A DNA stretch of 64,000 nt from an uncultured Candidatus Saccharibacteria bacterium (GCA_964554805.1 CAZKPX010000002.1:113889-177888), one strand, 5' to 3'; counted from the stretch's first letter, positions 27,474 to 40,335 are shown. Translations and numbers: made by a program. The notes: generated by a model from the sequence alone, not told the origin.

Positions 27474-27867
27474 CCTGTCCGCCCACAGGGCGGAACCAGG
27501 GCAGGTTGGATGCGATGGTTGCGCGCCACCGCGCGCGATCTATATTACGCATGCAACTTACCATGCCACAGGGCGGAACCAGGCAGGTTGGATGCGATGG
27601 TTGCGCGCCACCGCGCGCGAATTTATACTACGCATGCAATCTGTCCGCCCAAGGGCGGAACCGGGCAGGTTGGATGCGATGGTTGCGCGCCGCCGCGCGC
27701 GATCTATATTGCGCATGCAACTTACCACGCCATAGGGCGGAACCAGGGCAGGTTGGATGCGATTATTGTTTGCCGCCGCAAACTATTGTTACTATTTTCC
27801 AGCTAAGGCTGGAAAACGCATGCAATCTATCATGCCGTTGGCGGAACTAGGGCGGGTGGGGTGTGAG
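27474..27867. repeat. Tandem array (about 4.7 copies) of an ~82-bp G+C-rich, hairpin-dense unit; the 4th copy carries an internal substitution/insertion
   Basis: Units ...gggcggaaccagggcaggttggatgcgatggttgcgcgccaccgcgcgcgatctatattacgcatgcaa... repeat head-to-tail; each has tccgccc/gggcgga and gcgcgc/gcgcgc hairpins. Confidence 0.85.
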
Positions 27868-28031
27868 ATTTTGGACCTTGATAGTAACATACACATTTCC
27901 AAGGAGCGTATCTTTTGGTTGGGTGTAGTTTGCCAGCGATTGTGCTCGCCAAGTCTGTGCTCTAAGTTGCTGGTACTGCCTATATGGTAGTTATCATTTA
28001 GTTCGCTTGGTAGGATATAAAAATAAGCCAT
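27792..28031 (-). pseudogene. Small GIY-YIG nuclease-family gene, frameshifted and 3'-truncated where it runs into the tandem repeat array
   Basis: N-terminus MAYFYILPSELNDNYHIGSTSNLEHRLGEHN matches GIY-YIG; an alternate frame gives KRYAPWKCVCYYQGPKSH (compare RRPWKLVYYEEF...), then the sequence is repeat-derived. Confidence 0.5.
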
Positions 28032-28799: not shown

Positions 28800-28885
28800 T
28801 GGTGCCGAAGAGAGGATTTGAACCTCCACGCTTTTTACAGCACTACGACCTGAACGTAGCGTGTCTACCGTTCCACCACTTCGGC
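28800..28885 (-). tRNA. tRNA-Leu (CAG), long variable arm, CCA encoded
   Basis: GCCGAAGTGGTGGAACGGTAGACAC-CTACG-TTCAGGT-CGTAG-variable arm-GGAGGTTCAAATCCTCT-CTTCGGCACCA. Confidence 0.8.
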
Positions 28886-28920: not shown

Positions 28921-29100
28921 TTCTGGTGCCGAGGAAAGTAACGTTCGCTTTGCTCTCGGGCTATAGTCACCTTCTATTCGGCTCGTTGGCCGAATAGAAG
29001 GTGACTATAGATGCCCCTACAGCTTGAAGCTGTTGAAGGTTATTACCTGCCCTGACTACCAGGTGTATGTTACCCACCAAGTGAGTAAAATACACCTGGT
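28921..29100. repeat. Left copy of a 180-bp perfect direct repeat (begins tggtgccgaggaaag, mimicking a tRNA-Leu 3' end); contains a 22-bp-stem hairpin
   Basis: Identical by eye, base for base, to 40077-40256. Confidence 0.85.
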
Positions 29101-29196
29101 GCCCTAGATGACTCATCACCATTCGAACACTTTATGGAGTGGCTTAATAGTTTATACCAAGCTTTTCAAAGTGAGGATGATCACTAGAGTCTAAAT

Positions 29197-29406
29197 TCAC
29201 CGGGGTATTATATCATGAAAATCCAGATTCAGTGCATTTAGAATCTTGATGAAATTCTGAAGCGAAACATTAACTTCACCACGTTCAATAAGGGCGTAGG
29301 AGGACACGTTTATGCCCACTATTTGTGCTAACTGTGCTTGGCTAAGGTCTTTTGCCCTGCGGGCCGTTCTTATTTTTTGTCCAATTTCTTTAGCGGTGGC
29401 GTTCAT
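29197..29406 (-). CDS. XRE-family HTH transcriptional regulator (Cro/CI-like)
   Basis: IGQKIRTARRAKDLSQAQLAQIVGINVSSYALIERGEVNVSLQNFIKIL. Confidence 0.8.
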   Translation of the reverse strand: MNATAKEIGQKIRTARRAKDLSQAQLAQIVGINVSSYALIERGEVNVSLQNFIKILNALNLDFHDIIPR

Positions 29407-29462: not shown

Positions 29463-29750
29463 TCAAGGTAAATCCCTGCTATGCGCCTCTATCAGAATAT
29501 CCTCCAGTAAGAGTAATGACCACTGGACTCGGTTAGCCTGCAGGTGTGCATTTACTTCCTTGACCATTCCAGGAAAGCCTTTGTCATTGATCATTTTCTG
29601 AACCGTATCCGGGGAGAACTTGCCCTCCAGCATGTGGAACGTGGCGCGTACTTCAATTTTGTGGTCTGGATCATGGATATCAGACCACCTAAGGCCTTTT
29701 TCATCTGTGATATCCTCTGATGCCGATGCTTCTTGAGTGTCGATATTCAT
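29463..29750 (-). CDS. Hypothetical 95-aa protein immediately upstream of the XRE gene (possible toxin- or regulator-like partner)
   Basis: ORF only; co-oriented with the XRE gene, 56-bp gap. Confidence 0.35.
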   Translation of the reverse strand: MNIDTQEASASEDITDEKGLRWSDIHDPDHKIEVRATFHMLEGKFSPDTVQKMINDKGFPGMVKEVNAHLQANRVQWSLLLLEDILIEAHSRDLP

Positions 29751-29780: not shown

Positions 29781-30623
29781 TTAAAACTCTTGATAAAGAT
29801 CACTATCTTCCATCCAGTTTTGAGCACTTGTCTCTCCCCGAGTAGTAGTCCACCCGCTTGATTTTTGTGATGGGTAGCGGCTGGGTGGCACCTCACCATC
29901 ATATAGCCACATATCATCAGTCCCATCTTTGCCGCCCACAGCAAAGGTCCATCCTGAGGGAGTTGTACGCCAAGCGTACCAAGAACGGCCGTCTTGAGAT
30001 ACCTTAACAGTAGTGCTTGCTTCAAGTGGCTGATCTTTAACAGAGCCATTGAATAAAAGTATCGGATCATCTCTATATCCCGGCGGATGGCCGTTTCTAT
30101 AGTAGCCCCGTTGGGTAGAAAAAAGACGTATGAATAGTTGTTGTGTTCGCTTAAACTCTCTTTGGTCTAACTGCTTTCCGTCGCAATCTACCTCCTTAAC
30201 ATCAGCATACCTTTTTAGCCGCAGTGCTTGGGCTTTGGCTCTATGCTCAGTTTCTTGAACGCTTAAGCGAAACCGCCACATTACTTTTCGCGCTCCCATG
30301 AAAGTTCTTTCCTTCTGTATGTCTGTGTACCATGTCCCACTAAACGCGCTTGCATACCTTAAGCTACCATGTAGCCCTAGCACTACAGCTAATTTTACTG
30401 TGCATTTTATGCTACTTCCCTTCCTGGCTGTAGCTGAAAGCCCTTTTGAAACCACTTCAATCCTCATAGCTAGGCTGAGTATATAAATAAATGGGATAAG
30501 AGATAGTGGAAACCAGATAGACAGAATAAGAGGCGCAAGCACTCCTTCGCTGCCCTGACTAATCCATATTTCACGAAAATCGAGAGTTGTCTTGGTGAAC
30601 AAGATAGCCGTTACAATTATCAA
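29781..30623 (-). CDS. Hypothetical membrane-anchored protein (N-terminal 2 TM, C-terminal Gly/Trp/Thr-rich soluble domain); 4th gene of island operon
   Basis: 280 aa; ATGA start/stop overlap with the upstream gene. Confidence 0.45.
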   Translation of the reverse strand: MIIVTAILFTKTTLDFREIWISQGSEGVLAPLILSIWFPLSLIPFIYILSLAMRIEVVSKGLSATARKGSSIKCTVKLAVVLGLHGSLRYASAFSGTWYTDIQKERTFMGARKVMWRFRLSVQETEHRAKAQALRLKRYADVKEVDCDGKQLDQREFKRTQQLFIRLFSTQRGYYRNGHPPGYRDDPILLFNGSVKDQPLEASTTVKVSQDGRSWYAWRTTPSGWTFAVGGKDGTDDMWLYDGEVPPSRYPSQKSSGWTTTRGETSAQNWMEDSDLYQEF

Positions 30624-31105
30624 GACCGTCTGAAGAAAATTATAGTCGATTTTGGTGTTTCTTGCCGATGTGGCGCTATTGCCAGCATCACAACTGTGCA
30701 GATTAGAATCAGTTGAATTACTATTTCTGCCAGGATATTAAATGAACTTAGATTGACATAAAAGGCTAAAAATGCCGAGAGGCCAAGGGTATCTTTGAGC
30801 GTTTTTCTTGTTATGTCGCTGGACCTTCTGTTGGTGTGAGCGCTAAATACCATTCCCATGCCGATTAAAAGAACCATGACAAAGGTGTCCTTTAAAAGGC
30901 TTGTATCCCACCAGCCCTTTGCCCAGGCAAGCCATAAAAGAAGTCCTGCGTAGCACAGGTAAAAAGCAATTACAGAAAGAATCGGTTTGCTGCAGAACGT
31001 TTTCAGGATATCTGCAAAGCTTTTTCGTACCTCAGCTCGAAAAAAGGCGAAGGCCAGGAATGTACCTACTATGATCAATGTTGCGACTTCACGGTTTGTT
31101 AGCAT
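30620..31105 (-). CDS. Hypothetical 4-TM membrane protein; 3rd gene of island operon
   Basis: 161 aa; overlaps both neighbours (17 nt upstream, 4 nt downstream). Confidence 0.45.
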   Translation of the reverse strand: MLTNREVATLIIVGTFLAFAFFRAEVRKSFADILKTFCSKPILSVIAFYLCYAGLLLWLAWAKGWWDTSLLKDTFVMVLLIGMGMVFSAHTNRRSSDITRKTLKDTLGLSAFLAFYVNLSSFNILAEIVIQLILICTVVMLAIAPHRQETPKSTIIFFRRS

Positions 31106-32231
31106 GCGTTCTACCTTTAGACTTAACCAGCTTGAGAAGATCTTCCTCTATCTCATAGACTCTTAGCCTGCCTGTGAGTACACCTAGCCTGTAATTGACG
31201 CCTTCGCTCATCAGTTGCCAGTTGGTGTCCTTTAATTCTTGCTTTATCAGCCTTTCCAAATTCTTTGTACTCCTATATTTGTCTCTATCCGGTTCAGTGT
31301 CCCGGACTGAAAAAGCGGCAGCGCTATAGCGGTCATCGGTTGGGTTTTCAAGGCTGAATTTTGCATATCCCTTGGCTTCAGTGCGCTTAGTCAGCCTTCG
31401 CTCTACTTCGTGGACAGTAGGTTTTTGGATATTGGCGACGTTCTCATATAGGTCTTTGTTGTCTATGCGCTCTTTCATTTCGCGCATAAAGGAGGCCATC
31501 TGCAATGTCTGCTGCTTGGCTTTGAGGAACTCTTGGCCTTGTTTATCGTCAAAGCAGAACAGGACCTTATCTTTTTCAAAGTCTGGATCAGGCACTTTTT
31601 CAGGTTCTTCCTTTAGGTCTAAAACATCTTGGTAGCCATGCTCACAGCTTGAACAAGTATAGGTAGTAATAATACGGCCATCTTCCCGCTTATTAGAGTC
31701 TTCCATGACCTGACTACAGACTGGACAAGACGCTTTAGGTTTCTCCCATAATATGCCGTCATGCCACACAGCCGTTCGCTTACTGCAATCAAGGCAGTCA
31801 AAAAGAAAGACGACCTCTTCCTTTCTCTCTGGCCTAGGGACTAAATCCTTGGAAATAAGCTGAAGATTGTGTGAGCGGCAGTGCTTGCAAGGAGATGACT
31901 TTTTAAGCTGAGCAGACTCAACCTCGTTATCTCTAGCCCTATCTTGCTCCATCCACTCATCTATTGTTGCTTGGCGCTCTTCCCAGCGTTCACCAGCCAC
32001 CCACTCAGTAGCAAACCAATAGTGCAAGCTAAATACTTTGCGAAGCTCAAACTCCGGGTCTTCAATCTCTGGATCTACTTTAGAGAGGTCGTTTTGCTTT
32101 AATTTATTGCACGCCTCAATAATCGTTGCTTCACTTCTGCGACACTTTTCTACAGTAAACCGATCGTATAGGTCTTGGTAATAGGAGGCGTCTTTAAGGT
32201 AGCGCGGTACTGTTTTATTCTTCTGAGTCAT
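31089..32231 (-). CDS. Hypothetical charged protein with two CxxC...CxxC zinc-ribbon modules; 2nd gene of island operon
   Basis: CKHC-(27)-CLDC and CPVC-(19)-CSSC motifs; 380 aa; 17-nt overlaps with neighbours. Confidence 0.45.
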   Translation of the reverse strand: MTQKNKTVPRYLKDASYYQDLYDRFTVEKCRRSEATIIEACNKLKQNDLSKVDPEIEDPEFELRKVFSLHYWFATEWVAGERWEERQATIDEWMEQDRARDNEVESAQLKKSSPCKHCRSHNLQLISKDLVPRPERKEEVVFLFDCLDCSKRTAVWHDGILWEKPKASCPVCSQVMEDSNKREDGRIITTYTCSSCEHGYQDVLDLKEEPEKVPDPDFEKDKVLFCFDDKQGQEFLKAKQQTLQMASFMREMKERIDNKDLYENVANIQKPTVHEVERRLTKRTEAKGYAKFSLENPTDDRYSAAAFSVRDTEPDRDKYRSTKNLERLIKQELKDTNWQLMSEGVNYRLGVLTGRLRVYEIEEDLLKLVKSKGRTHANKP

Positions 32232-33012
32232 TCATCTTATCAACCGCCTGGTTAAACTCGTTAACCAGTTGATTTAATTTGGCCTCATAATCTAAGTCCA
32301 ACTCATCATGGACTATACTTAAGATTAAGTGCATATAATCAAAGGCTATAATTAAACTTTCACTTACCCAATTGTCACTTTCTCCAGCATCAACGAAAAA
32401 GCCATCTTCAGACTCTTTGTAGTAGTTGCTAAAAGACAATGAATCTGAGTGGGTTAAACCTGAAAGCATGGGATACATAGTATCGTAAAAATGTTGTCGC
32501 CCAATAGTCCTGGCCATCTCCCATAGTTTTTTATCAGACCAGCCGAATGCATTATAGTCTTGTCGCCCAAGTATCTCATCTGCAGCAGCATGAATCTCTG
32601 CTACTATTGACTGCCCTGGCCTTGGATTTTCTTCCCTTCTCTTTAACTCTTCAAGAAGCGATTCATGTTTCTCAGCATGCTTGATACTTTGCGAAGCTTT
32701 GACAGGGGCATATTCTATAAATCTAGTTAGCAAGTCATCAGTCTTATCGTTAAAAATGTATTTCATCACCACTGCAAGCTCAAATAGAGATCGTGAAATA
32801 ATTGCAGCATCTTCTCCATTGCCATTGGCGCACAGAGACATGATCGCTATGTGAGACTTAGAGGCCTTAGCTAGCGCAATAGCGGCCACTAACGACCTCC
32901 GGGTGCTCTCGCTCTGCCCGTTGGTCATAATCTCTTCTACTATCTCGTGCATTCTTAAGTGCAGCGAATAAAGCTTTTCGTTTGGATCAGAAGGCGATAT
33001 CTCAATTGGCAT
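32215..33012 (-). CDS. Hypothetical soluble protein with an R-x5-H (HEPN-like) motif; 1st gene of island operon
   Basis: 265 aa; ...EMARTIGRQHFYD... contains R-x5-H; own 5' region of about 260 bp. Confidence 0.4.
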   Translation of the reverse strand: MPIEISPSDPNEKLYSLHLRMHEIVEEIMTNGQSESTRRSLVAAIALAKASKSHIAIMSLCANGNGEDAAIISRSLFELAVVMKYIFNDKTDDLLTRFIEYAPVKASQSIKHAEKHESLLEELKRREENPRPGQSIVAEIHAAADEILGRQDYNAFGWSDKKLWEMARTIGRQHFYDTMYPMLSGLTHSDSLSFSNYYKESEDGFFVDAGESDNWVSESLIIAFDYMHLILSIVHDELDLDYEAKLNQLVNEFNQAVDKMNDSEE

Positions 33013-33273: not shown

Positions 33274-33900
33274 CTAAGTGCAGGGTATTATTCTGAGATA
33301 CGCTAAAAAACCAACATCCTCGCCTGAGGGTTTTTCCTTGTAGTTGTGAGGATACCTCTTGAGCAAGTATTCATCTCGCTCTTTTTGGATTGTTTTTGTC
33401 TGCCTTGAGAATATAGAAATAAATACGGGATAACTCGCATCCCGGATGGGCAGGAAATCATGTGCTGTGTTTTTCTCGTAATTGGATATTATGACAGGGG
33501 ATTGAAGTAGGTTCTTCCCTATCGAGTTCGAAAATTTCTCCAACCTTAATTCCGCATTAGGTAATACATCACCAGCAACGGCAATATTTATGGTTAATAA
33601 ATTCCCTTCAATTTGGCCTAACGGGAATTTTTCACCTAGTCCTTCTTCCGCAGCTTTCTCGTGTTGGCTATCGTATCCAATTACCCTAACCCACCAGAAG
33701 TAATCCCAACCAAGCTTTGATTCAATCTTGTCTATGCTGGCCACGAAGATTACTTTTGGCCGAGAAAACCTTTTTCTAAATACATCTGCTTTAAAACCTA
33801 CCCAAAAACCAGTAAGGGCAAGGAATACTGGTACAAAAATTTGCAATCCTGCTACGAGGTAATCAAATCCATCTGGAATAATATTTACATCAATTAACAT
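33274..33900 (-). CDS. Hypothetical protein with N-terminal TM segment
   Basis: 208-aa ORF upstream of the operon. Confidence 0.4.
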   Translation of the reverse strand: MLIDVNIIPDGFDYLVAGLQIFVPVFLALTGFWVGFKADVFRKRFSRPKVIFVASIDKIESKLGWDYFWWVRVIGYDSQHEKAAEEGLGEKFPLGQIEGNLLTINIAVAGDVLPNAELRLEKFSNSIGKNLLQSPVIISNYEKNTAHDFLPIRDASYPVFISIFSRQTKTIQKERDEYLLKRYPHNYKEKPSGEDVGFLAYLRIIPCT

Positions 33901-34213: not shown

Positions 34214-37200
34214 GTGCTGTGCACAACCTCTTTACTTGACCGCATGATTAAAAAACTCGTTGTCTTTACTCTAGCAACTACTGCACTGCTCCTAACTATC
34301 ACCTTCTGGCCAGGCAACAATCTGGTCAAGGACTTCTTTGGCTTCAATCAGCAAGCCAACCCTCAGGATGTGACGGGGGGGCAATTTGATGCCAAACAGC
34401 CTTTAGACGCTACTACTCTGCTCGGTCAAGATGGTCTTTACTACCTTCAAGCAGGCAATCTGGTTGGCACCATCGCCACTGACCGTTTCTCAGCCTATGA
34501 TGACCTGATCGACGAGGGACGCATCCCTGCAAACTCCCGCCTGCTTACTGATCAAGACTTACCACTATCCACTCCCCCAGCTCCTCAGTCTGTTCTGCAA
34601 ACCCAGCCCAACACGCCCAATCTACCCAATCAATCCAGCCTTCAAACCCTGTCATCCTCTACTCTCAACTTAACCCTTCACCATGGCACTCTCACCGGCT
34701 CAGTTATCCAAAATGGCCTCCAAACCAGCCTGATAACCAATGACGCTGGTTTCCTAACTTCTCTACTTAACTTCACCACCGACGACCTGACTCAAGGCAG
34801 CACTAACCGCTACACTCAGTGGCAAACGGTCTTAGGTGGTATTTCCTATACTCAATCCGTTACTATTAGTGGCAATGTAACTTTAACTCAATTCACCTCT
34901 CCCTCTGGTCTCCTCTACACTACCAACACTGGTCTTGTCTCTCAGCTTCCCCTCGGCACCTCTGGCCAGTGCCTCCAGTCCGACACTACTGCTCTGGTTT
35001 GGGGATCGTGCGCTACTGGCACGCTAACTGGCACCGGAACCACGGGACAATTGGCCCTTTTTAGTAGTTCCAGCAGTTTGAGCGGCAGCAATGGCTTGGT
35101 CTGGAATGTCCTAGATGGAGCTTTTGAAATTGACGGTGATGTGGATGTAACTGGCGGCTTCTTGGTGGACGGCAACCCGTTGAGTACGACTCATGTGATT
35201 GAAGGGACTAATCTTTACTGGACCAATGGCCGATTTGATACCCGCTTCGGTACTGCCTTTGGCCCGGCCTTTGATAGCGCCTTTGGTGGCAAGACAACTA
35301 ATGACCTGACTGAGGGCGGTAGCGCTTTGTATTGGACTAATAATCGGTTTGATCTGCGTCTGGCCACTAAGGATACTGATGACTTGACTGAAGGCGAAGA
35401 CAACTTGTACTTTACTCAGCTGCGGGTGTCGGCTAATGCTGATGTAGCCGCTAACACTGCCGCCCGGCATGCGGAGGCGACCGTAGGAGATACGGGAACC
35501 CTGGATCTAACTATTGTGGGACAACACATCACAGGTACAGTTATTCAGTCGGGCATTCAGACGACCTTGATTACCAACGACGCGGCCTTTATTTCTAATC
35601 TAACTGACTTTGATACGGATAACCTAGGTGAGGGAGATGTAAATTTGTATTGGACTAATGATCGGTTCGATACCCGCTTCGGCACCGCCTTCAGTTCGGC
35701 CTTTGGTTCAGCTTTTGACAGCGCTTTCGGTGGCAAGAATACTGATGATCTGGATGAGGGTGAAACGAATCTTTATAGTCAATGGGCCTACAATTCGACT
35801 GCCATTACTTTCGGTGACAGTGTCGGTATTGGGGCTTCATCGGCACCGACAGCTACCTTGGATGTGACGGGTACTTTCAGGGTTAGTGGGGCAGTGACTT
35901 TGGCTAACTACACTACCAACGGTGGTATTTTGTACACCAATGGGTCAGGAGCCTTGTCTCAGCTAGGAGTTGGATCTTCCGGGCAATGTCTGGTGTCGAC
36001 CGGCGGTGTGCCGACTTGGGGGTCGTGCGCTGAGGCGGGAACCATTACTGGCTCTGGCACTGCAGGGCAGTTAACCTTCTTTAGCAGTGGGGACACTATT
36101 ACGGGTAGCGCAGCCTTGGTTTGGGATGGGGTGGAGGAGGCATTGGCCATTGGTGGGGATGTGGATGTGACCGGGGTTATTTCAGGTGATGGATCGGGGT
36201 TGACCGATTTGAGCGGTACAGCCATTACTTCAGGAACGATTCTTAATGCTTGGTTAGTTAACTCCGGCGCTCTGACGGTTAGCGCCGGTACTGGCTTGAG
36301 TGGTGGTGGCAGCACGGCACTGGGTGGGTCGACTACTATTAACTTGGCCAACACGGCAGTTGAAGCTGGTTCGTATGGTTCAGCTACCCATGTAGCCCAC
36401 TTTACGGTTGATGCTCAGGGTCGGTTGACGGCTGCTGGTACCACGGCTATTGCCATCGCCGGTGAAGCTATTTCTTCCGGCACTGTGGCTAATGCTCGGT
36501 TAGTTAATGGCGGTGCTTTGAGCGTTAGTGCCGGTACCGGTTTATCTGGCGGTGGTAGTGTGGCTTTGGGTGGGTCAACAACCATTGATTTGGCTAATAC
36601 GGCAGTTGATGCCGATGACTATGGTTCTGCCTCACAAGTGACCACCTTTACCGTTGATGCCCAAGGCCGATTGACGGCGGCTAACAGCGTCAATATTTCT
36701 ATTAATGCCTCAGCCATTAGCGCTGGTACTGTGGCTATTAACCGCGGCGGCACTAACTCAACTGCTACCCCAACCGCTGGCGGGATTGCTTACGGTACCG
36801 GTAGCGCTTATGCCTTTACTGCGGTTGGCACGGAAGGTCAGTGTTTGATGTCTGATGGTAGCAGTGCTCCAACCTGGGGAACTTGCGGCGAGGCTTTGCC
36901 GTCAGATAACCTTACTGGTTCAGGTGCCAATGGCCAACTGGCCTTCTTTGACGGCACTCACACCCAAACCTCCTCTGCCAGTCTGACTTGGAACGGTTCT
37001 CTGTTGAGTATCACTGGCGGGCTTAGTGTCTCTGGTAGTATCACTTTTGCTAACTTTGCTACAAACTACGGCTTGCTCTACACCAACGCCTCTGGTTTGC
37101 TTCATCAACTAACAACTGGATCGGCGGGTCAATGTCTCAAATCGGGAGTTGGCGGGTCGCTCCTTTGGGATGACTGTGGCGGCGGTGGCCTAGCCGGCGG

Positions 37201-38164
37201 TAGCAATCCTGGAGACATGATCTACTGGAGTGGTAGTGCCTGGGTGCAGCTGGCTGCTGGCCTCGATGGTCAGTCAATGGTCTTTTGTCAGGGCCAGCCT
37301 CGATGGGGCGGGGCTATTCCTGTACTTACCACCAAAGCTGGTACTAATACTACTTGGGAGCAAACAGAGACCGGTGGTATTATCAGCGACAATGGTTGTG
37401 CTGAGATTATTGAGCGGGGAGTGGTTTTCTCTACCTCTCCTAATCCCACCTTGGCTAACGGCGTATCTGTCTCCTCCGACACCACTGATAATTTTGATGT
37501 AGTGGCTCATCCCTTGCCCTCGGATACCACTGTCTACATCCGCGCCTATGCTACCAACGCTGGCGGTACTGGATACGGTAACCAGATCACCGTCAATACT
37601 CCTGAACCTCCGGCCTTTAGTATTGGTGATCCTGGTCCGGCTGGGGGAGTTATCTTCTATGTTAAGCCTAGTTACTCTGACGGTTGGCGCTACCTAGAGG
37701 CTGCCACCGCCGATTACGGCTCCCCTACCACCGTCCAATGGGGTTGTCGTGGCACCTCAGTCCCTGGTTCTGGAGGTACGGCCATTGGCACAGGTAAAGC
37801 CAATACTCTCGCTATTGTGGCTTTCCATGACAATCCAGCCAACTTTGGTGGCAATAATTACTACTCCTTTGGTGGTGATTATGGAACCATAGGTTGTAAC
37901 TCGGCCAACAACGGGGTCGTAGCTGCCAAGCTAGCGACGCAGTTTGTTCAAAACGGCTATGACGACTGGTTCTTGCCTAGCTCAGGTGAACTCAATGAAC
38001 TGTATGACCAGCAAGCAACCGTCGGTGGCTTCGGCGCTACCGATTACTGGAGTAGTTCGGAGTACACGGTGACTACCGCCCGCTACCAGAAGTTCTTTAG
38101 TGGTAACGAGAATGGCGGTAGTAAGAGCAATAGCCTCCGGGTCAGGTTCGTCAGGGCTTTTTAG
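34214..38164 (+). CDS. Giant secreted/surface repeat protein with phage-tail-fibre-like repeats and a C-terminal DUF1566 (Lcl C-terminal)-like domain; putative adhesin
   Basis: 1316 aa; N-terminal signal/TM; 4x [TDDLTEG..NLYWTNxRFDxR..AFDSAFGGK], 4x [SGQCLxS....WGSC], 2x [LVNGGALSVSAGTGLSGGGS...FTVDAQGRLTAA]; C-terminus ...GWRYLEAA...DDWFLPSSGELNELY...DYWSSSEY...SLRVRFVRAF. Confidence 0.7.
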   Translation: MLCTTSLLDRMIKKLVVFTLATTALLLTITFWPGNNLVKDFFGFNQQANPQDVTGGQFDAKQPLDATTLLGQDGLYYLQAGNLVGTIATDRFSAYDDLIDEGRIPANSRLLTDQDLPLSTPPAPQSVLQTQPNTPNLPNQSSLQTLSSSTLNLTLHHGTLTGSVIQNGLQTSLITNDAGFLTSLLNFTTDDLTQGSTNRYTQWQTVLGGISYTQSVTISGNVTLTQFTSPSGLLYTTNTGLVSQLPLGTSGQCLQSDTTALVWGSCATGTLTGTGTTGQLALFSSSSSLSGSNGLVWNVLDGAFEIDGDVDVTGGFLVDGNPLSTTHVIEGTNLYWTNGRFDTRFGTAFGPAFDSAFGGKTTNDLTEGGSALYWTNNRFDLRLATKDTDDLTEGEDNLYFTQLRVSANADVAANTAARHAEATVGDTGTLDLTIVGQHITGTVIQSGIQTTLITNDAAFISNLTDFDTDNLGEGDVNLYWTNDRFDTRFGTAFSSAFGSAFDSAFGGKNTDDLDEGETNLYSQWAYNSTAITFGDSVGIGASSAPTATLDVTGTFRVSGAVTLANYTTNGGILYTNGSGALSQLGVGSSGQCLVSTGGVPTWGSCAEAGTITGSGTAGQLTFFSSGDTITGSAALVWDGVEEALAIGGDVDVTGVISGDGSGLTDLSGTAITSGTILNAWLVNSGALTVSAGTGLSGGGSTALGGSTTINLANTAVEAGSYGSATHVAHFTVDAQGRLTAAGTTAIAIAGEAISSGTVANARLVNGGALSVSAGTGLSGGGSVALGGSTTIDLANTAVDADDYGSASQVTTFTVDAQGRLTAANSVNISINASAISAGTVAINRGGTNSTATPTAGGIAYGTGSAYAFTAVGTEGQCLMSDGSSAPTWGTCGEALPSDNLTGSGANGQLAFFDGTHTQTSSASLTWNGSLLSITGGLSVSGSITFANFATNYGLLYTNASGLLHQLTTGSAGQCLKSGVGGSLLWDDCGGGGLAGGSNPGDMIYWSGSAWVQLAAGLDGQSMVFCQGQPRWGGAIPVLTTKAGTNTTWEQTETGGIISDNGCAEIIERGVVFSTSPNPTLANGVSVSSDTTDNFDVVAHPLPSDTTVYIRAYATNAGGTGYGNQITVNTPEPPAFSIGDPGPAGGVIFYVKPSYSDGWRYLEAATADYGSPTTVQWGCRGTSVPGSGGTAIGTGKANTLAIVAFHDNPANFGGNNYYSFGGDYGTIGCNSANNGVVAAKLATQFVQNGYDDWFLPSSGELNELYDQQATVGGFGATDYWSSSEYTVTTARYQKFFSGNENGGSKSNSLRVRFVRAF

Positions 38165-38204: not shown

Positions 38205-38549
38205 ATGGCCCTTTATTACGATCTTCCTGTTTTCCGTGATACCTACCAACTTTCCCTTCTCATTTTTTCCTACACTCAAGAATTTCCCAGAGAATATAAA
38301 TTCACCCTCGGTCAAGACATGAAGCGAGACACCATTCAGCTGATGCGCAGCATCTACCGGGCCAATAAAACTAAAGACAAAACCGAGTATCTCAACGACT
38401 TTTTGGACGACTTTGAGCTGCTTAAGCTCCAAATTCGCCTAGCTACTGATCTTAAAATCTTGCCGGTAAAGAATCAGGCCCAGCTGGCGCTTCACTTGGA
38501 ATCCATCGGCAAGCAGGTCACCGCCTGGCGCAACGCTGCGACCCACTAG
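38205..38549 (+). CDS. Four-helix-bundle protein (Avd / 23S-rRNA-IVS-protein-like)
   Basis: About 114 aa, predicted all-helical; MALYYDLPVFRDTYQLSLLIF... resembles the TIGR02436 family. Confidence 0.45.
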   Translation: MALYYDLPVFRDTYQLSLLIFSYTQEFPREYKFTLGQDMKRDTIQLMRSIYRANKTKDKTEYLNDFLDDFELLKLQIRLATDLKILPVKNQAQLALHLESIGKQVTAWRNAATH

Positions 38550-38685
38550 TCACCCCTTTTCCTTTGCTTGGTTGATGGGATATACTGAAGTAGCCAGAAT
38601 CTGCTGGGTCATGGCCTAGTAGAGTGAGCGTTCGTATTAGTCTAAAAGCGGCATAGGGACTGTCCCTCGTCATGCCTTTTAAAGG

Positions 38686-40119
38686 TTGGACGAATCAGTT
38701 GATTCTGATTGTATATTTAGGGAAGAAGGACGCTCAGCCAAGACAATTGCTGGTCGGCCGAAGCTGCTTGATTTACTCAATTACTGCCGGAAGAATAAGA
38801 AGATTATTGATAGTGTTATTGTTTATCGCTTGGATCGCATCTCCAGACAAACGGCAGACTATCTCACAATTAGAACTAAATTAGCCGAGAGCGGTATTAA
38901 TCTCATATCTGCCACCGAGCCGACAGGTAACAGCCCTGCTGAAAAGATGATTGAGACAATCTTGGCCAGCTTTGCTCAGTTGGATAATGACGTAAAGAGC
39001 GAGCGGTCTAAAAACGGCCTTCAGGCTCGCTTCAAAGCTGGCTTGAAGTCTTCTTCTGTGCCGATTGGATACCTGGCTAAAAATGGTTTTGCCATCAAAG
39101 ACCCTGATACTTTTGAATATATAAAGCATGGTTGGGAAATGTTAGCCACAGGTAAAGACAGTCTGCAGGATGTGATGCACTATCTTAATGAGAATGGTGT
39201 TCGGATGCGGCAAAAAGGTAAAGCAAACCTCATCAGCAAGCAATCTGTGTCAAGAATCTACAGAAACAAATTTTACTGCGGCATATTGGTATCTAAAAAG
39301 TATGGCATGGAAGTTAGCGGGCAGCATCAGCCGATGATCAATGAAAGTATGTTTTATGCGGTGCAGGCCATGATAGATAATCGCGGTCCAAATAGGTCAG
39401 GACACAAGCTTAGATATATTCTGGATCACCCTGAATTCCCCTTGCGGCGCTTTATGATGTGCGGTATATGCGATAAGCCTATGACAGGTGGATTTAGCAA
39501 GGGTAAAAACCAGCGATATGGCTATTATTTCTGCGCTAATCGTTGTGGTGCACCATCATCAATCAATATAAACAATATGGAAGTGTCGGTTATAAGTAAT
39601 CTCAAAGACCTTGAACCAACCGCTCGGTTGTTTGAGAAGGTTTCAAAAAGCCTGCGCCAAAAATACATCTCACGAATGGGCAAATTTCAAACAGCGGCTC
39701 AGGACAAGGTAGCAGTCATTGAAGCAGTTAAAGAAACACGACAATCACTTATCGAAAAGAACCTAGCTGGTTTATATTCTGATGAGTTATTCAGGGAGCA
39801 ACTAGCGGTTCTAGACCAAAAACTAGCTGATGCGTACGCGGCACAATCACGAGCCAATCTGGCAAATTACAATTATGAGGTGTTATTTAAGTTTATAGAA
39901 GAAAAATTGGCACATATTGCCAAGACATACGAGGAATCAACGCTATCTCAGAAAAAAGCATTGCTGTGTTCGATATTCCCTTCTGGTATGCGCTGGATGT
40001 ACCCAGGCATTTCGAACACTGAGATTTCACCGTGGTATCAAGTAATTCAAGGTGTTAATAAGCTTGATGTCACACTTGGTGCCGAGGAAAGTAACGTTCG
40101 CTTTGCTCTCGGGCTATAG
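38686..40119 (+). CDS. Large serine recombinase (resolvase/recombinase domain + zinc-ribbon); N-terminal catalytic motif missing or degraded
   Basis: ...IFREEGRSAKTIAGRPKLLDLL...VIVYRLDRISRQ... (resolvase core), recombinase domain, C..C...C..C ribbon, coiled-coil tail; called ORF begins with TTG; upstream frames carry only a corrupted RVS-like remnant with stop and frameshift. Confidence 0.7.
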   Translation: MDESVDSDCIFREEGRSAKTIAGRPKLLDLLNYCRKNKKIIDSVIVYRLDRISRQTADYLTIRTKLAESGINLISATEPTGNSPAEKMIETILASFAQLDNDVKSERSKNGLQARFKAGLKSSSVPIGYLAKNGFAIKDPDTFEYIKHGWEMLATGKDSLQDVMHYLNENGVRMRQKGKANLISKQSVSRIYRNKFYCGILVSKKYGMEVSGQHQPMINESMFYAVQAMIDNRGPNRSGHKLRYILDHPEFPLRRFMMCGICDKPMTGGFSKGKNQRYGYYFCANRCGAPSSININNMEVSVISNLKDLEPTARLFEKVSKSLRQKYISRMGKFQTAAQDKVAVIEAVKETRQSLIEKNLAGLYSDELFREQLAVLDQKLADAYAAQSRANLANYNYEVLFKFIEEKLAHIAKTYEESTLSQKKALLCSIFPSGMRWMYPGISNTEISPWYQVIQGVNKLDVTLGAEESNVRFALGL

Positions 40120-40256
40120 TCACCTTCTATTCGGCTCGTTGGCCGAATAGAAGGTGACTATAGATGCCCCTACAGCTTGAAGCTGTTGAAGGTTATTACC
40201 TGCCCTGACTACCAGGTGTATGTTACCCACCAAGTGAGTAAAATACACCTGGTGCC
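40077..40256. repeat. Right copy of the 180-bp direct repeat; overlaps the recombinase 3' end and abuts tRNA-Leu(GAG)
   Basis: Identical to 28921-29100. Confidence 0.85.
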
Positions 40257-40335
40257 GAGGAAAGGAGTTGAACCTTCACGCTTTTTACGGCACTACCACC
40301 TCAAGGTAGCGTGTCTACCATTCCACCACCTCGGC
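40250..40335 (-). tRNA. tRNA-Leu (GAG), long variable arm, CCA encoded
   Basis: GCCGAGGTGGTGGAATGGTAGACAC-CTACC-TTGAGGT-GGTAG-variable arm-GAAGGTTCAACTCCTTT-CCTCGGCACCA. Confidence 0.8.

Follow-up and report, generated by a model that had tools for sequence, protein, structure and literature searches.

Gene content of the locus

A 64,000-nucleotide (nt) stretch of DNA from an uncultured Candidatus Saccharibacteria bacterium (GCA_964554805.1, CAZKPX010000002.1:113889-177888), referred to here as the window, carries on its minus strand an array of overlapping genes at positions 29,781 to 33,012, which was analysed by comparison with related loci in other genomes. Gene 1 (32215..33012) encodes an acidic, all-alpha protein of 265 amino acids (aa) that belongs to the Pfam family PF18928 (DUF5677) and occupies a variable-cargo slot upstream of gene 2. 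Gene 2 (31089..32231) encodes a 380-aa protein, called ZnR below, that combines two zinc ribbons with a helical hairpin, further helices and an alpha/beta domain at the C-terminus. Gene 3 (30620..31105; 161 aa, hydrophobic helices) and gene 4 (29781..30623; 280 aa from a TTG start, with the last transmembrane helices, a basic linker and a Trp/Gly-rich soluble domain) encode the N-terminal and C-terminal parts of one membrane protein. The arrangement is best explained as a mosaic of cargo genes lodged in the defence hotspot of an element that derives from a phage, formed by three independent genes and not by a module, and this reading is given a probability of roughly 0.72.

An earlier note on this DNA had described four open reading frames (ORFs) overlapping by 17 nt (gene 1/gene 2), 17 nt (gene 2/gene 3) and 4 nt (gene 3/gene 4), and the coordinates were found to be exactly these. 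All four ORFs have homologues and are therefore real genes, not chance ORFs. The 265-aa start of gene 1 is backed by the alignment of its homologues and by a confident N-terminal helix in the structure model, and the 224-aa NCBI record of this gene is probably too short. ZnR has no alternative methionine ahead of its conserved YLK motif, and the start of gene 3 is backed by alignment, its MLTNRE being the N-terminus of the family as in its relatives. When the four proteins and the neighbouring gene products were scanned against Pfam, NCBIfam, PHROG and PADLOC, DUF5677 and generic helix-turn-helix (HTH) families were the only matches; the note's statement that none of the genes belongs to a housekeeping family agrees with this outcome.

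The array extends beyond these four genes on the same strand. Its first gene (33274..33900, minus strand) encodes a 208-aa protein with one N-terminal hydrophobic helix, and a search of the related loci yielded no homologue of it. Gene 4 is followed, after a gap of 30 nt, by a gene for a 95-aa acidic protein of no family (29463..29750, minus strand) and, after a further 56 nt, by the last gene of the array, which encodes a 69-aa Xre/HTH_3 regulator (29197..29406, minus strand). The 95-aa protein is 51% identical to the product of the gene directly after ZnR in two related loci (L001 and L002), and a homologue of the regulator also follows ZnR in L001; the PADLOC matches of the HTH gene are to generic control proteins. 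The array is probably co-transcribed, and the ORF overlaps would couple translation. A scan for promoters and terminators in the operon region found nothing beyond shuffled expectation.

Synteny of the three gene families

The ZnR family was searched in one genome per GTDB species, which gave 227 coding matches. The best 80 of these 227 were read, and the ZnR context counts below refer to 81 non-redundant loci, in which ORFs were called by a naive longest-ORF rule under code 11. On the DUF5677 side 51 loci were examined, and a neighbourhood radius of 8 kb was used for both sets.

DUF5677 was adjacent to ZnR in none of the 81 ZnR loci, and a membrane-family gene lay within 8 kb of ZnR in one of them, on the opposite strand. 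From the DUF5677 side, ZnR was found within the same distance in one of 51 loci (L136), not adjacent, and the membrane family in none (0/51). In the closest relative of the window locus (L001), ZnR is accompanied by the 95-aa gene and by the HTH gene, while DUF5677 and the membrane gene are both missing. In the loci read, the order of the four genes was found conserved nowhere else, an outcome that the earlier note had itself named as one that would refute its proposed four-gene module. Its view that the array bears the hallmarks of a defence module holds in so far as DUF5677 and ZnR recur among anti-phage systems, and fails for a single coupled module of four genes.

The profile searches that had been suggested as a check gave no convincing PADLOC match for any of the three families and DUF5677 as the sole Pfam family. 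The PADLOC batch scan reports counts by family, without per-gene calls; among homologues of the three families at E<=0.01 it gave weak matches only (PDC-M45A, 0.0039; Csm6, 0.0085), the other matches among homologues sitting in the SEC-C-type N-terminus of one protein (P0186). In the DUF5677 locus that also contains ZnR (L136, Ga0265297_10000038), ZnR is followed by TerL, TerS and ParB-MTase on the other strand, by two small genes and then by DUF5677, which looks like two elements, or element arms, lying back to back.

A hypervariable slot beside ZnR

The surroundings of ZnR in other genomes combine a core of fixed order with highly variable neighbours. Where phage-type core genes were present they always lay upstream of ZnR (a ParB-like DNA methyltransferase, ParB-MTase, in 31/31 cases, the small terminase TerS in 31/31, the large terminase TerL in 21/21) and never downstream, and an S24 CI-like repressor was upstream in 17 of 18 cases; PHROG profiles confirmed the identities of the core genes. 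Serine integrases were found on either side. Between the core and ZnR lie type I restriction-modification (RM) genes (HsdR in 11 loci), the Hachiman gene HamB, a CBASS cyclase with an effector of two transmembrane helices (2TM), a KAP NTPase, reverse transcriptases (RT/DRT), a RelA-like gene, DUF4238 and an FtsK/SspH-like gene. At least one of a few labelled defence families was present in 29 of the 81 loci.

The genes directly beside ZnR fell into 62 clusters at position -1 (79 loci) and 70 clusters at position +1 (75 loci). The upstream gene was on the same strand as ZnR in 67 of 79 loci and at most 50 nt away in 57 of 79. ZnR proteins that are 86-95% identical can nonetheless have different -1 genes, and ZnR identity correlates with ParB-MTase identity (Spearman 0.47, p 4e-14, 227 pairs); ZnR co-varies with the element core and not with its neighbours. 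In comparisons of close relatives, the homologous DNA sets in between about -17 and +30 nt relative to the start of ZnR and breaks off between about -18 and +83 nt relative to its stop; it reaches further only where a cassette is shared. The closest relative of the window locus (ZnR proteins 70% identical) comes from the same sequencing run, and DNA homology between the two is confined to 31126-32200, a segment inside ZnR. In four loci without a cassette (L067, L079, L080 and L084), ZnR directly faces ParB-MTase. Transfer RNA (tRNA) genes were not consistently found near ZnR in the 60 loci inspected for them.

ZnR was also found on five IMG/VR contigs, together with the same core genes. The elements could be phage satellites, or prophages in reduced form; those five are classed as viral by IMG/VR. 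As seen in L003, L036 and L091 (and also in L047 and L063), they contain TerS, TerL, ParB-MTase, a serine integrase, a CI-like repressor and sometimes HNH. Genes for portal or capsid were not seen in those loci that have the integrase directly beside TerL.

The ZnR protein

The CxxC pairs of ZnR, at residues 115, 146, 169 and 193, are conserved in the family and form two beta zinc ribbons in the structure model, in keeping with the two ribbons that had been noticed in this 380-aa protein. Alignment of 27 full-length homologues, 27-67% identical, gave 18 invariant columns, with the motifs YLK..YY.DLYDRFTVE.CRR in the N-terminal part and TNWRLMSEGVNYRLG..GRLR.YE in the C-terminal part. Of the 227 coding matches in GTDB species genomes, those listed are nearly all from Saccharibacteria or other Patescibacteria. 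C30, in the N-terminal helix, and C226, after the ribbons, are invariant or nearly so, and C149, the second cysteine of the second knuckle, is absent from some members; there may be a third metal site, or the set of ligands may be a different one.

ZnR shares its CxxC...CxxC beta ribbons with Zn_ribbon_8, FmdB, TFIIS, TFIIB and the N-terminal part of NrdR, with weak matches that fall below every family threshold and span about 30-40 of the 380 residues. Membership in Zn_ribbon_8 (21.6 bits against the Pfam cut-off of 34.4) or in FmdB (17.9 bits against the NCBIfam cut-off of 31.3) is not supported. The helical hairpin and the C-terminal domain (TNWRLMSEGVNYRLG...) gave no informative match, no HTH or WYL domain was recognisable, and searches of PDB sequences with profiles of all three families returned nothing significant. 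The C-terminal domain is basic, and no catalytic-type residues are conserved beyond the cysteine ligands. Because of these two features, the best guess, held with low confidence, is that ZnR is a nucleic-acid-binding or regulatory protein. A literature search found no description of ZnR or of its element family.

The DUF5677 protein

Gene 1 is a clear member of DUF5677 (E 2.8e-27; 96.2 bits against a gathering cut-off of 27.1), matching positions 4-165 of the 166 in the profile; the family itself has no known function. In an alignment of 25 relatives, L60, D68, A69, R74 and H188 are invariant, and the structure model of gene 1 is confident (pLDDT, the predicted local distance difference test score, 91), with all invariant residues retained. 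The earlier note had read an R-x5-H motif in this protein as compatible with a HEPN-type RNase. The string is present (R169-x5-H175) and varies across relatives, the nearest homologue included. HEPN RNases are expected to carry Rx4-6H, whereas the invariant R74 and H188 of gene 1 lie 114 residues apart. Gene 1 does share an all-alpha fold with a four-helix bundle with these enzymes, as a generic structural match, and no HEPN profile matched it in the Pfam (E up to 1) or NCBIfam scans, DUF5677 being its sole Pfam match. A HEPN assignment is accordingly not supported.

Relatives of gene 1 occur singly, among differing genes: they adjoin DpnI, come after SMEK/MC6/DUF2326-type genes or, in an integrase-flanked island, come after a type I RM operon, and in several metagenome loci DUF5677 stands beside an S24 repressor, ParB-MTase or a serine recombinase. 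When four such contexts were compared for a conserved partner, the immediate neighbours showed no homology to one another. The sole PADLOC match of gene 1 in the window was PDC-S52 (E 0.0042), and a scan of viral contigs found no member of its DUF5677 subfamily. The protein is a candidate stand-alone conflict protein in which the conserved D68, R74 and H188 may form an active site.

DUF5677 has been reported as enriched in serine-recombinase-associated regions of Bacillota recovered with the RADS pipeline, and one such gene was tested there (PMC12632615, bioRxiv 10.1101/2025.10.07.681051); the five ORFs reported to protect Enterococcus faecalis from the six phages used did not include it (PMC12632615). 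In those regions, as here, large serine recombinases mark defence cargo, and KAP NTPases, found among the cargo beside ZnR, are cargo there too (PMC12632615). That study concerns Bacillota, and ZnR is unmentioned in it.

Genes 3 and 4 are halves of one membrane protein

The earlier note had counted two membrane proteins at the end of the array. The products are hydrophobic and the C-terminal domain is Trp/Gly-rich, as it had described; they are, however, the halves of one membrane protein of about 435 aa whose gene has been frameshifted by 1 nt. In a related locus (L064), one 447-aa ORF matches genes 3 and 4 together from end to end. A search of 1.84 billion representatives gave 473 relatives; most of the best 150 of these 473 are single ORFs of 425-450 aa, with gene 3 aligning to their N-terminal third and gene 4 to residues ~165-435. 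Because the two genes are collinear with single proteins of ~425-450 aa, the TTG 'start' of gene 4 is a frameshift artefact. The copy in the window is not one uninterrupted ORF, the frames being split at 30620-30640. The frameshift site, ATTTTCTTC (30632..30640, minus strand), contains a T run at 30636-30639, and one extra base in this run yields a single 440-aa ORF collinear with the family. An independent Logan assembly that is 100% identical over 7.9 kb has the same split, and its reads are possibly shared with the window.

The membrane protein of the window is probably inactive, or at least altered. A -1 frameshift heptamer was considered and rejected, the site not being a canonical X XXY YYZ; a slip in the P site on U_UUC would bring the frame back, which is pure speculation. 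A frameshift split that arose independently was found in two further loci (L147, 2486-3834, and L148), where products of 190 or 176 aa and of 277 aa are encoded with a 58-nt overlap, about 15 residues beyond the split point of the window. About a dozen of the 150 best representatives of the family are C-terminal-only forms.

Full-length members of the membrane family had no match in Pfam, PHROG or PADLOC, and none was found in a scan of viral contigs. In the few contexts that were seen, genes of this family stand alone, in varied and often mobile surroundings.

The integrated island

The array lies in an element of about 11.2 kb bounded by 180-nt direct repeats that are 100% identical and 11,153 bp apart. 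The left copy (28924..29103), which forms the island boundary, starts, like the right one, with the 15-nt 3' end of tRNA-Leu(GAG), TGGTGCCGAGGAAAG, and the right copy (40077..40256) overlaps the 3' ends of a recombinase gene and of tRNA-Leu(GAG) (40250-40335). The 15-nt tRNA-Leu core is present in three copies (at 28924, at 40077 and at 40250 in the tRNA gene itself) against 0.07 expected by chance, which suggests nested or tandem integration events. With these repeats at a tRNA-Leu gene, a serine recombinase and the Xre-type HTH gene, the location in a mobile island beside a regulator is as had been proposed. Repeats of 180 nt are longer than expected for serine integrases. Each repeat holds two perfect hairpins, with arms of 22 and 20 nt.

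The recombinase (38686..40119, plus strand) is a remnant of a large serine recombinase with Resolvase, Recombinase and Zn_ribbon_recom domains, from which the first ~49 residues are missing. Its Pfam Resolvase match begins at profile position 34, its alignment begins at residue ~50 of its homologues, past the catalytic-serine motif, and stop codons lie in the frames upstream of the ORF. An apparent remnant of the catalytic N-terminus (…RVSVRISLKAA*GLSL…) is found at 38300-38720 in another frame, with an in-frame stop, and the gene is therefore a pseudogene or a truncated form. Since the serine recombinase lacks its catalytic N-terminus, the element is probably immobile now. The TerL, TerS and ParB-MTase core was not found in the island of the window.

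Weighing of the explanations

In the preferred reading, the region is the cargo arm of the ~11.2-kb element integrated at tRNA-Leu(GAG), in which three independent genes have come to be packed head to tail by happenstance. DUF5677 is exchangeable cargo that in the window fills the slot upstream of ZnR, and the membrane gene is stand-alone exchangeable cargo split by a 1-nt deletion. ZnR is a conserved gene of a family of phage-derived integrative elements of Patescibacteria, lying on the repressor-side strand with hypervariable flanks. It may serve the element itself; the likeliest role is that of a zinc-ribbon protein that is co-expressed with the repressor and binds nucleic acids or acts as a regulator, and its conserved ORF could supply homology for the recombinational swapping of neighbouring cargo. 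The data show what the genes are, that their order is not conserved, how the hotspot is built, the frameshift and where the island ends; the biochemical functions suggested for all of these products are predictions.

Several observations weigh against this reading. No element core gene was found within 8 kb in 35 of the 81 ZnR loci, and variable genes lie downstream of ZnR as well as upstream, so that 'boundary' is too simple a description of it. No fold or sequence match assigns ZnR a function. DUF5677 overlaps ZnR by 17 nt, as ZnR does the membrane gene; locally the packing is tight, and co-function in this lineage is possible. The split membrane gene of L147 adjoins an MmeI-type RM enzyme gene and a gene distantly similar to DUF5677, whose match (E 1.8e-5) falls slightly short of the Pfam threshold and which is convergent to the membrane gene, in an island that also contains Mrr and SocA/Panacea; the pairing is read as co-residence in defence islands and hints at some association. 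Finally, the identical C-terminal product of the L147/L148 split persists in three samples, and a split membrane gene may be functional or tolerated, or else recurrently inactivated.

The coupling of the genes could also mean that they form one lineage-specific defence, abortive-infection or toxin system, with DUF5677 as sensor or nuclease, ZnR as adaptor and the membrane protein as effector, all translationally coupled. Such a system would suit the 17/17/4-nt overlaps of these same-strand genes, between which terminator signals do not exceed chance, and the location in a hotspot of the defence type; a membrane protein with a cytoplasmic domain would fit an abortive-infection effector, and the neighbours of the L147 membrane-family gene add to this side. 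It is nevertheless considered very unlikely: the pairings are all but missing from the 81 ZnR and 51 DUF5677 loci, the closest relative has ZnR without DUF5677 or the membrane gene, the putative effector is frameshifted, and there is no PADLOC match. A different possibility is that the genes are decaying prophage debris, functionless leftovers in which the hotspot reflects the general variability of prophage accessory regions. The recombinase without its catalytic N-terminus, the frameshifted membrane gene, the missing TerL, TerS and ParB-MTase core and the result obtained for the E. faecalis DUF5677 gene (PMC12632615) all point this way. However, ZnR is full length and retains 18 invariant columns across 27-67% identity, DUF5677 is intact with all its invariant residues and a pLDDT of 91, the direct repeats are still 100% identical, and known defence systems occupy the slot, so that decay to debris appears unlikely.

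Two further proposals would tie ZnR to the cargo, and neither is favoured. ZnR could be an accessory common to many defence cassettes, acting as regulator, sensor or safety factor and working with DUF5677 in the window; BrxR/CapW-type regulators, which are found beside diverse defence systems, offer an analogy. The same-strand, closely spaced upstream genes (67/79 and 57/79 loci) suggest co-transcription with the resident cassette, ZnR is kept while its surroundings change, and zinc ribbons are typical modules for interaction with nucleic acids or proteins. The four loci in which ZnR faces ParB-MTase without any cassette argue against it, as do the tracking of the element core by ZnR identity, the placement of ZnR at the 3' end of the cassette where known regulators are at the 5' end, and the lack of a recognisable HTH or WYL domain; an accessory role of this kind is judged improbable. 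The proposal that ZnR is a new element-encoded factor tied to cargo, either as universal partner, regulator or safety device of the cassettes or as promoter of cassette exchange at its own borders, and that in the window it acts with DUF5677, is regarded as distinctly improbable. Either cargo-tied role, if true, would explain why one ORF is kept, with base-precise homology breaks, in hundreds of Patescibacteria genomes. Mosaic cargo, with ZnR serving the element, is preferred to all of these. For the original proposal the value of the analysis is mostly corrective, as neither a four-gene module nor a HEPN system is supported.

Relation to known defence hotspots

In the hotspots of P2-like prophages, P4-like satellites and Pseudomonas aeruginosa, conserved genes reportedly flank a slot in which unrelated anti-phage systems interchange. 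Close relatives are said to differ in the cassette, and slot position is said to have been used to discover systems, the P2/P4 hotspots of E. coli having reportedly served as a handle for nominating new systems by position. The ZnR loci likewise have a core of fixed order and diverse known defence cargo, and likewise differ in cassette among close relatives, with homology breaking at ZnR. They differ from the P2/P4 and P. aeruginosa hotspots in belonging to Patescibacteria and being known from sequence alone, in a core made up of ParB-MTase, TerS, TerL, the S24 repressor and the serine integrase, and in having as marker a zinc-ribbon protein without annotation, flanked by variable genes both upstream and downstream. 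Defence hotspots have been described for prophages of the P2 type and satellites of the P4 type (Rousset et al. 2022, PMC9122126), and P. aeruginosa has core defence hotspots (PMC10250203); a hotspot inside a prophage-like or satellite-like element is of a known kind (PMC9122126, PMC10250203). What appears to be undescribed in the searchable literature is the present instance, with its phylum, its element family, ZnR as marker, and DUF5677 and many unknown genes among the cargo.

Patescibacteria, also called the candidate phyla radiation (CPR), make up a large share of bacterial diversity. They rarely carry CRISPR (PMC6509639), and because of this rarity phage resistance in these bacteria is poorly known. 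As an easily recognised marker of the slot, ZnR could be used to catalogue CPR defence cargo and to nominate systems by position, DUF5677 included. Three protein families are also flagged that have neither functional annotation nor structural relatives.

Other features of the island and its flank

The other strand of the island carries a gene (34214..38164, plus strand) for a 1316-aa repeat-rich protein with an Lcl C-terminal domain. This protein is Gly/Thr-rich, and its gene contains internal DNA repeats of 223 nt and 76 nt. It is probably a surface protein, and would be unusual cargo for the ZnR element family. The tRNA-Leu genes that flank the island, CAG (28800-28885) and GAG (40250-40335), are 86% identical over 99 nt, and a scan with Rfam found tRNAs only.

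Outside the left boundary, a G+C-rich 82-nt tandem repeat (27483-27763; 3.4 copies, 87% matching) lies between a solute-binding-protein gene and a small GIY-YIG ORF, with a partial copy at 27816-27859 and no Rfam match. Its units form a stable hairpin on the plus strand only (z -3.4 and -2.9, against -0.5 and +0.3 on the minus strand). The GIY-YIG ORF (27792-28031) encodes 79 aa, whose match to a GIY-YIG nuclease domain (E 1e-6) covers the N-terminal half, and adjoins a tRNA-Gly/Phe/Val/Leu cluster; it may be the remnant of a homing-type endonuclease.

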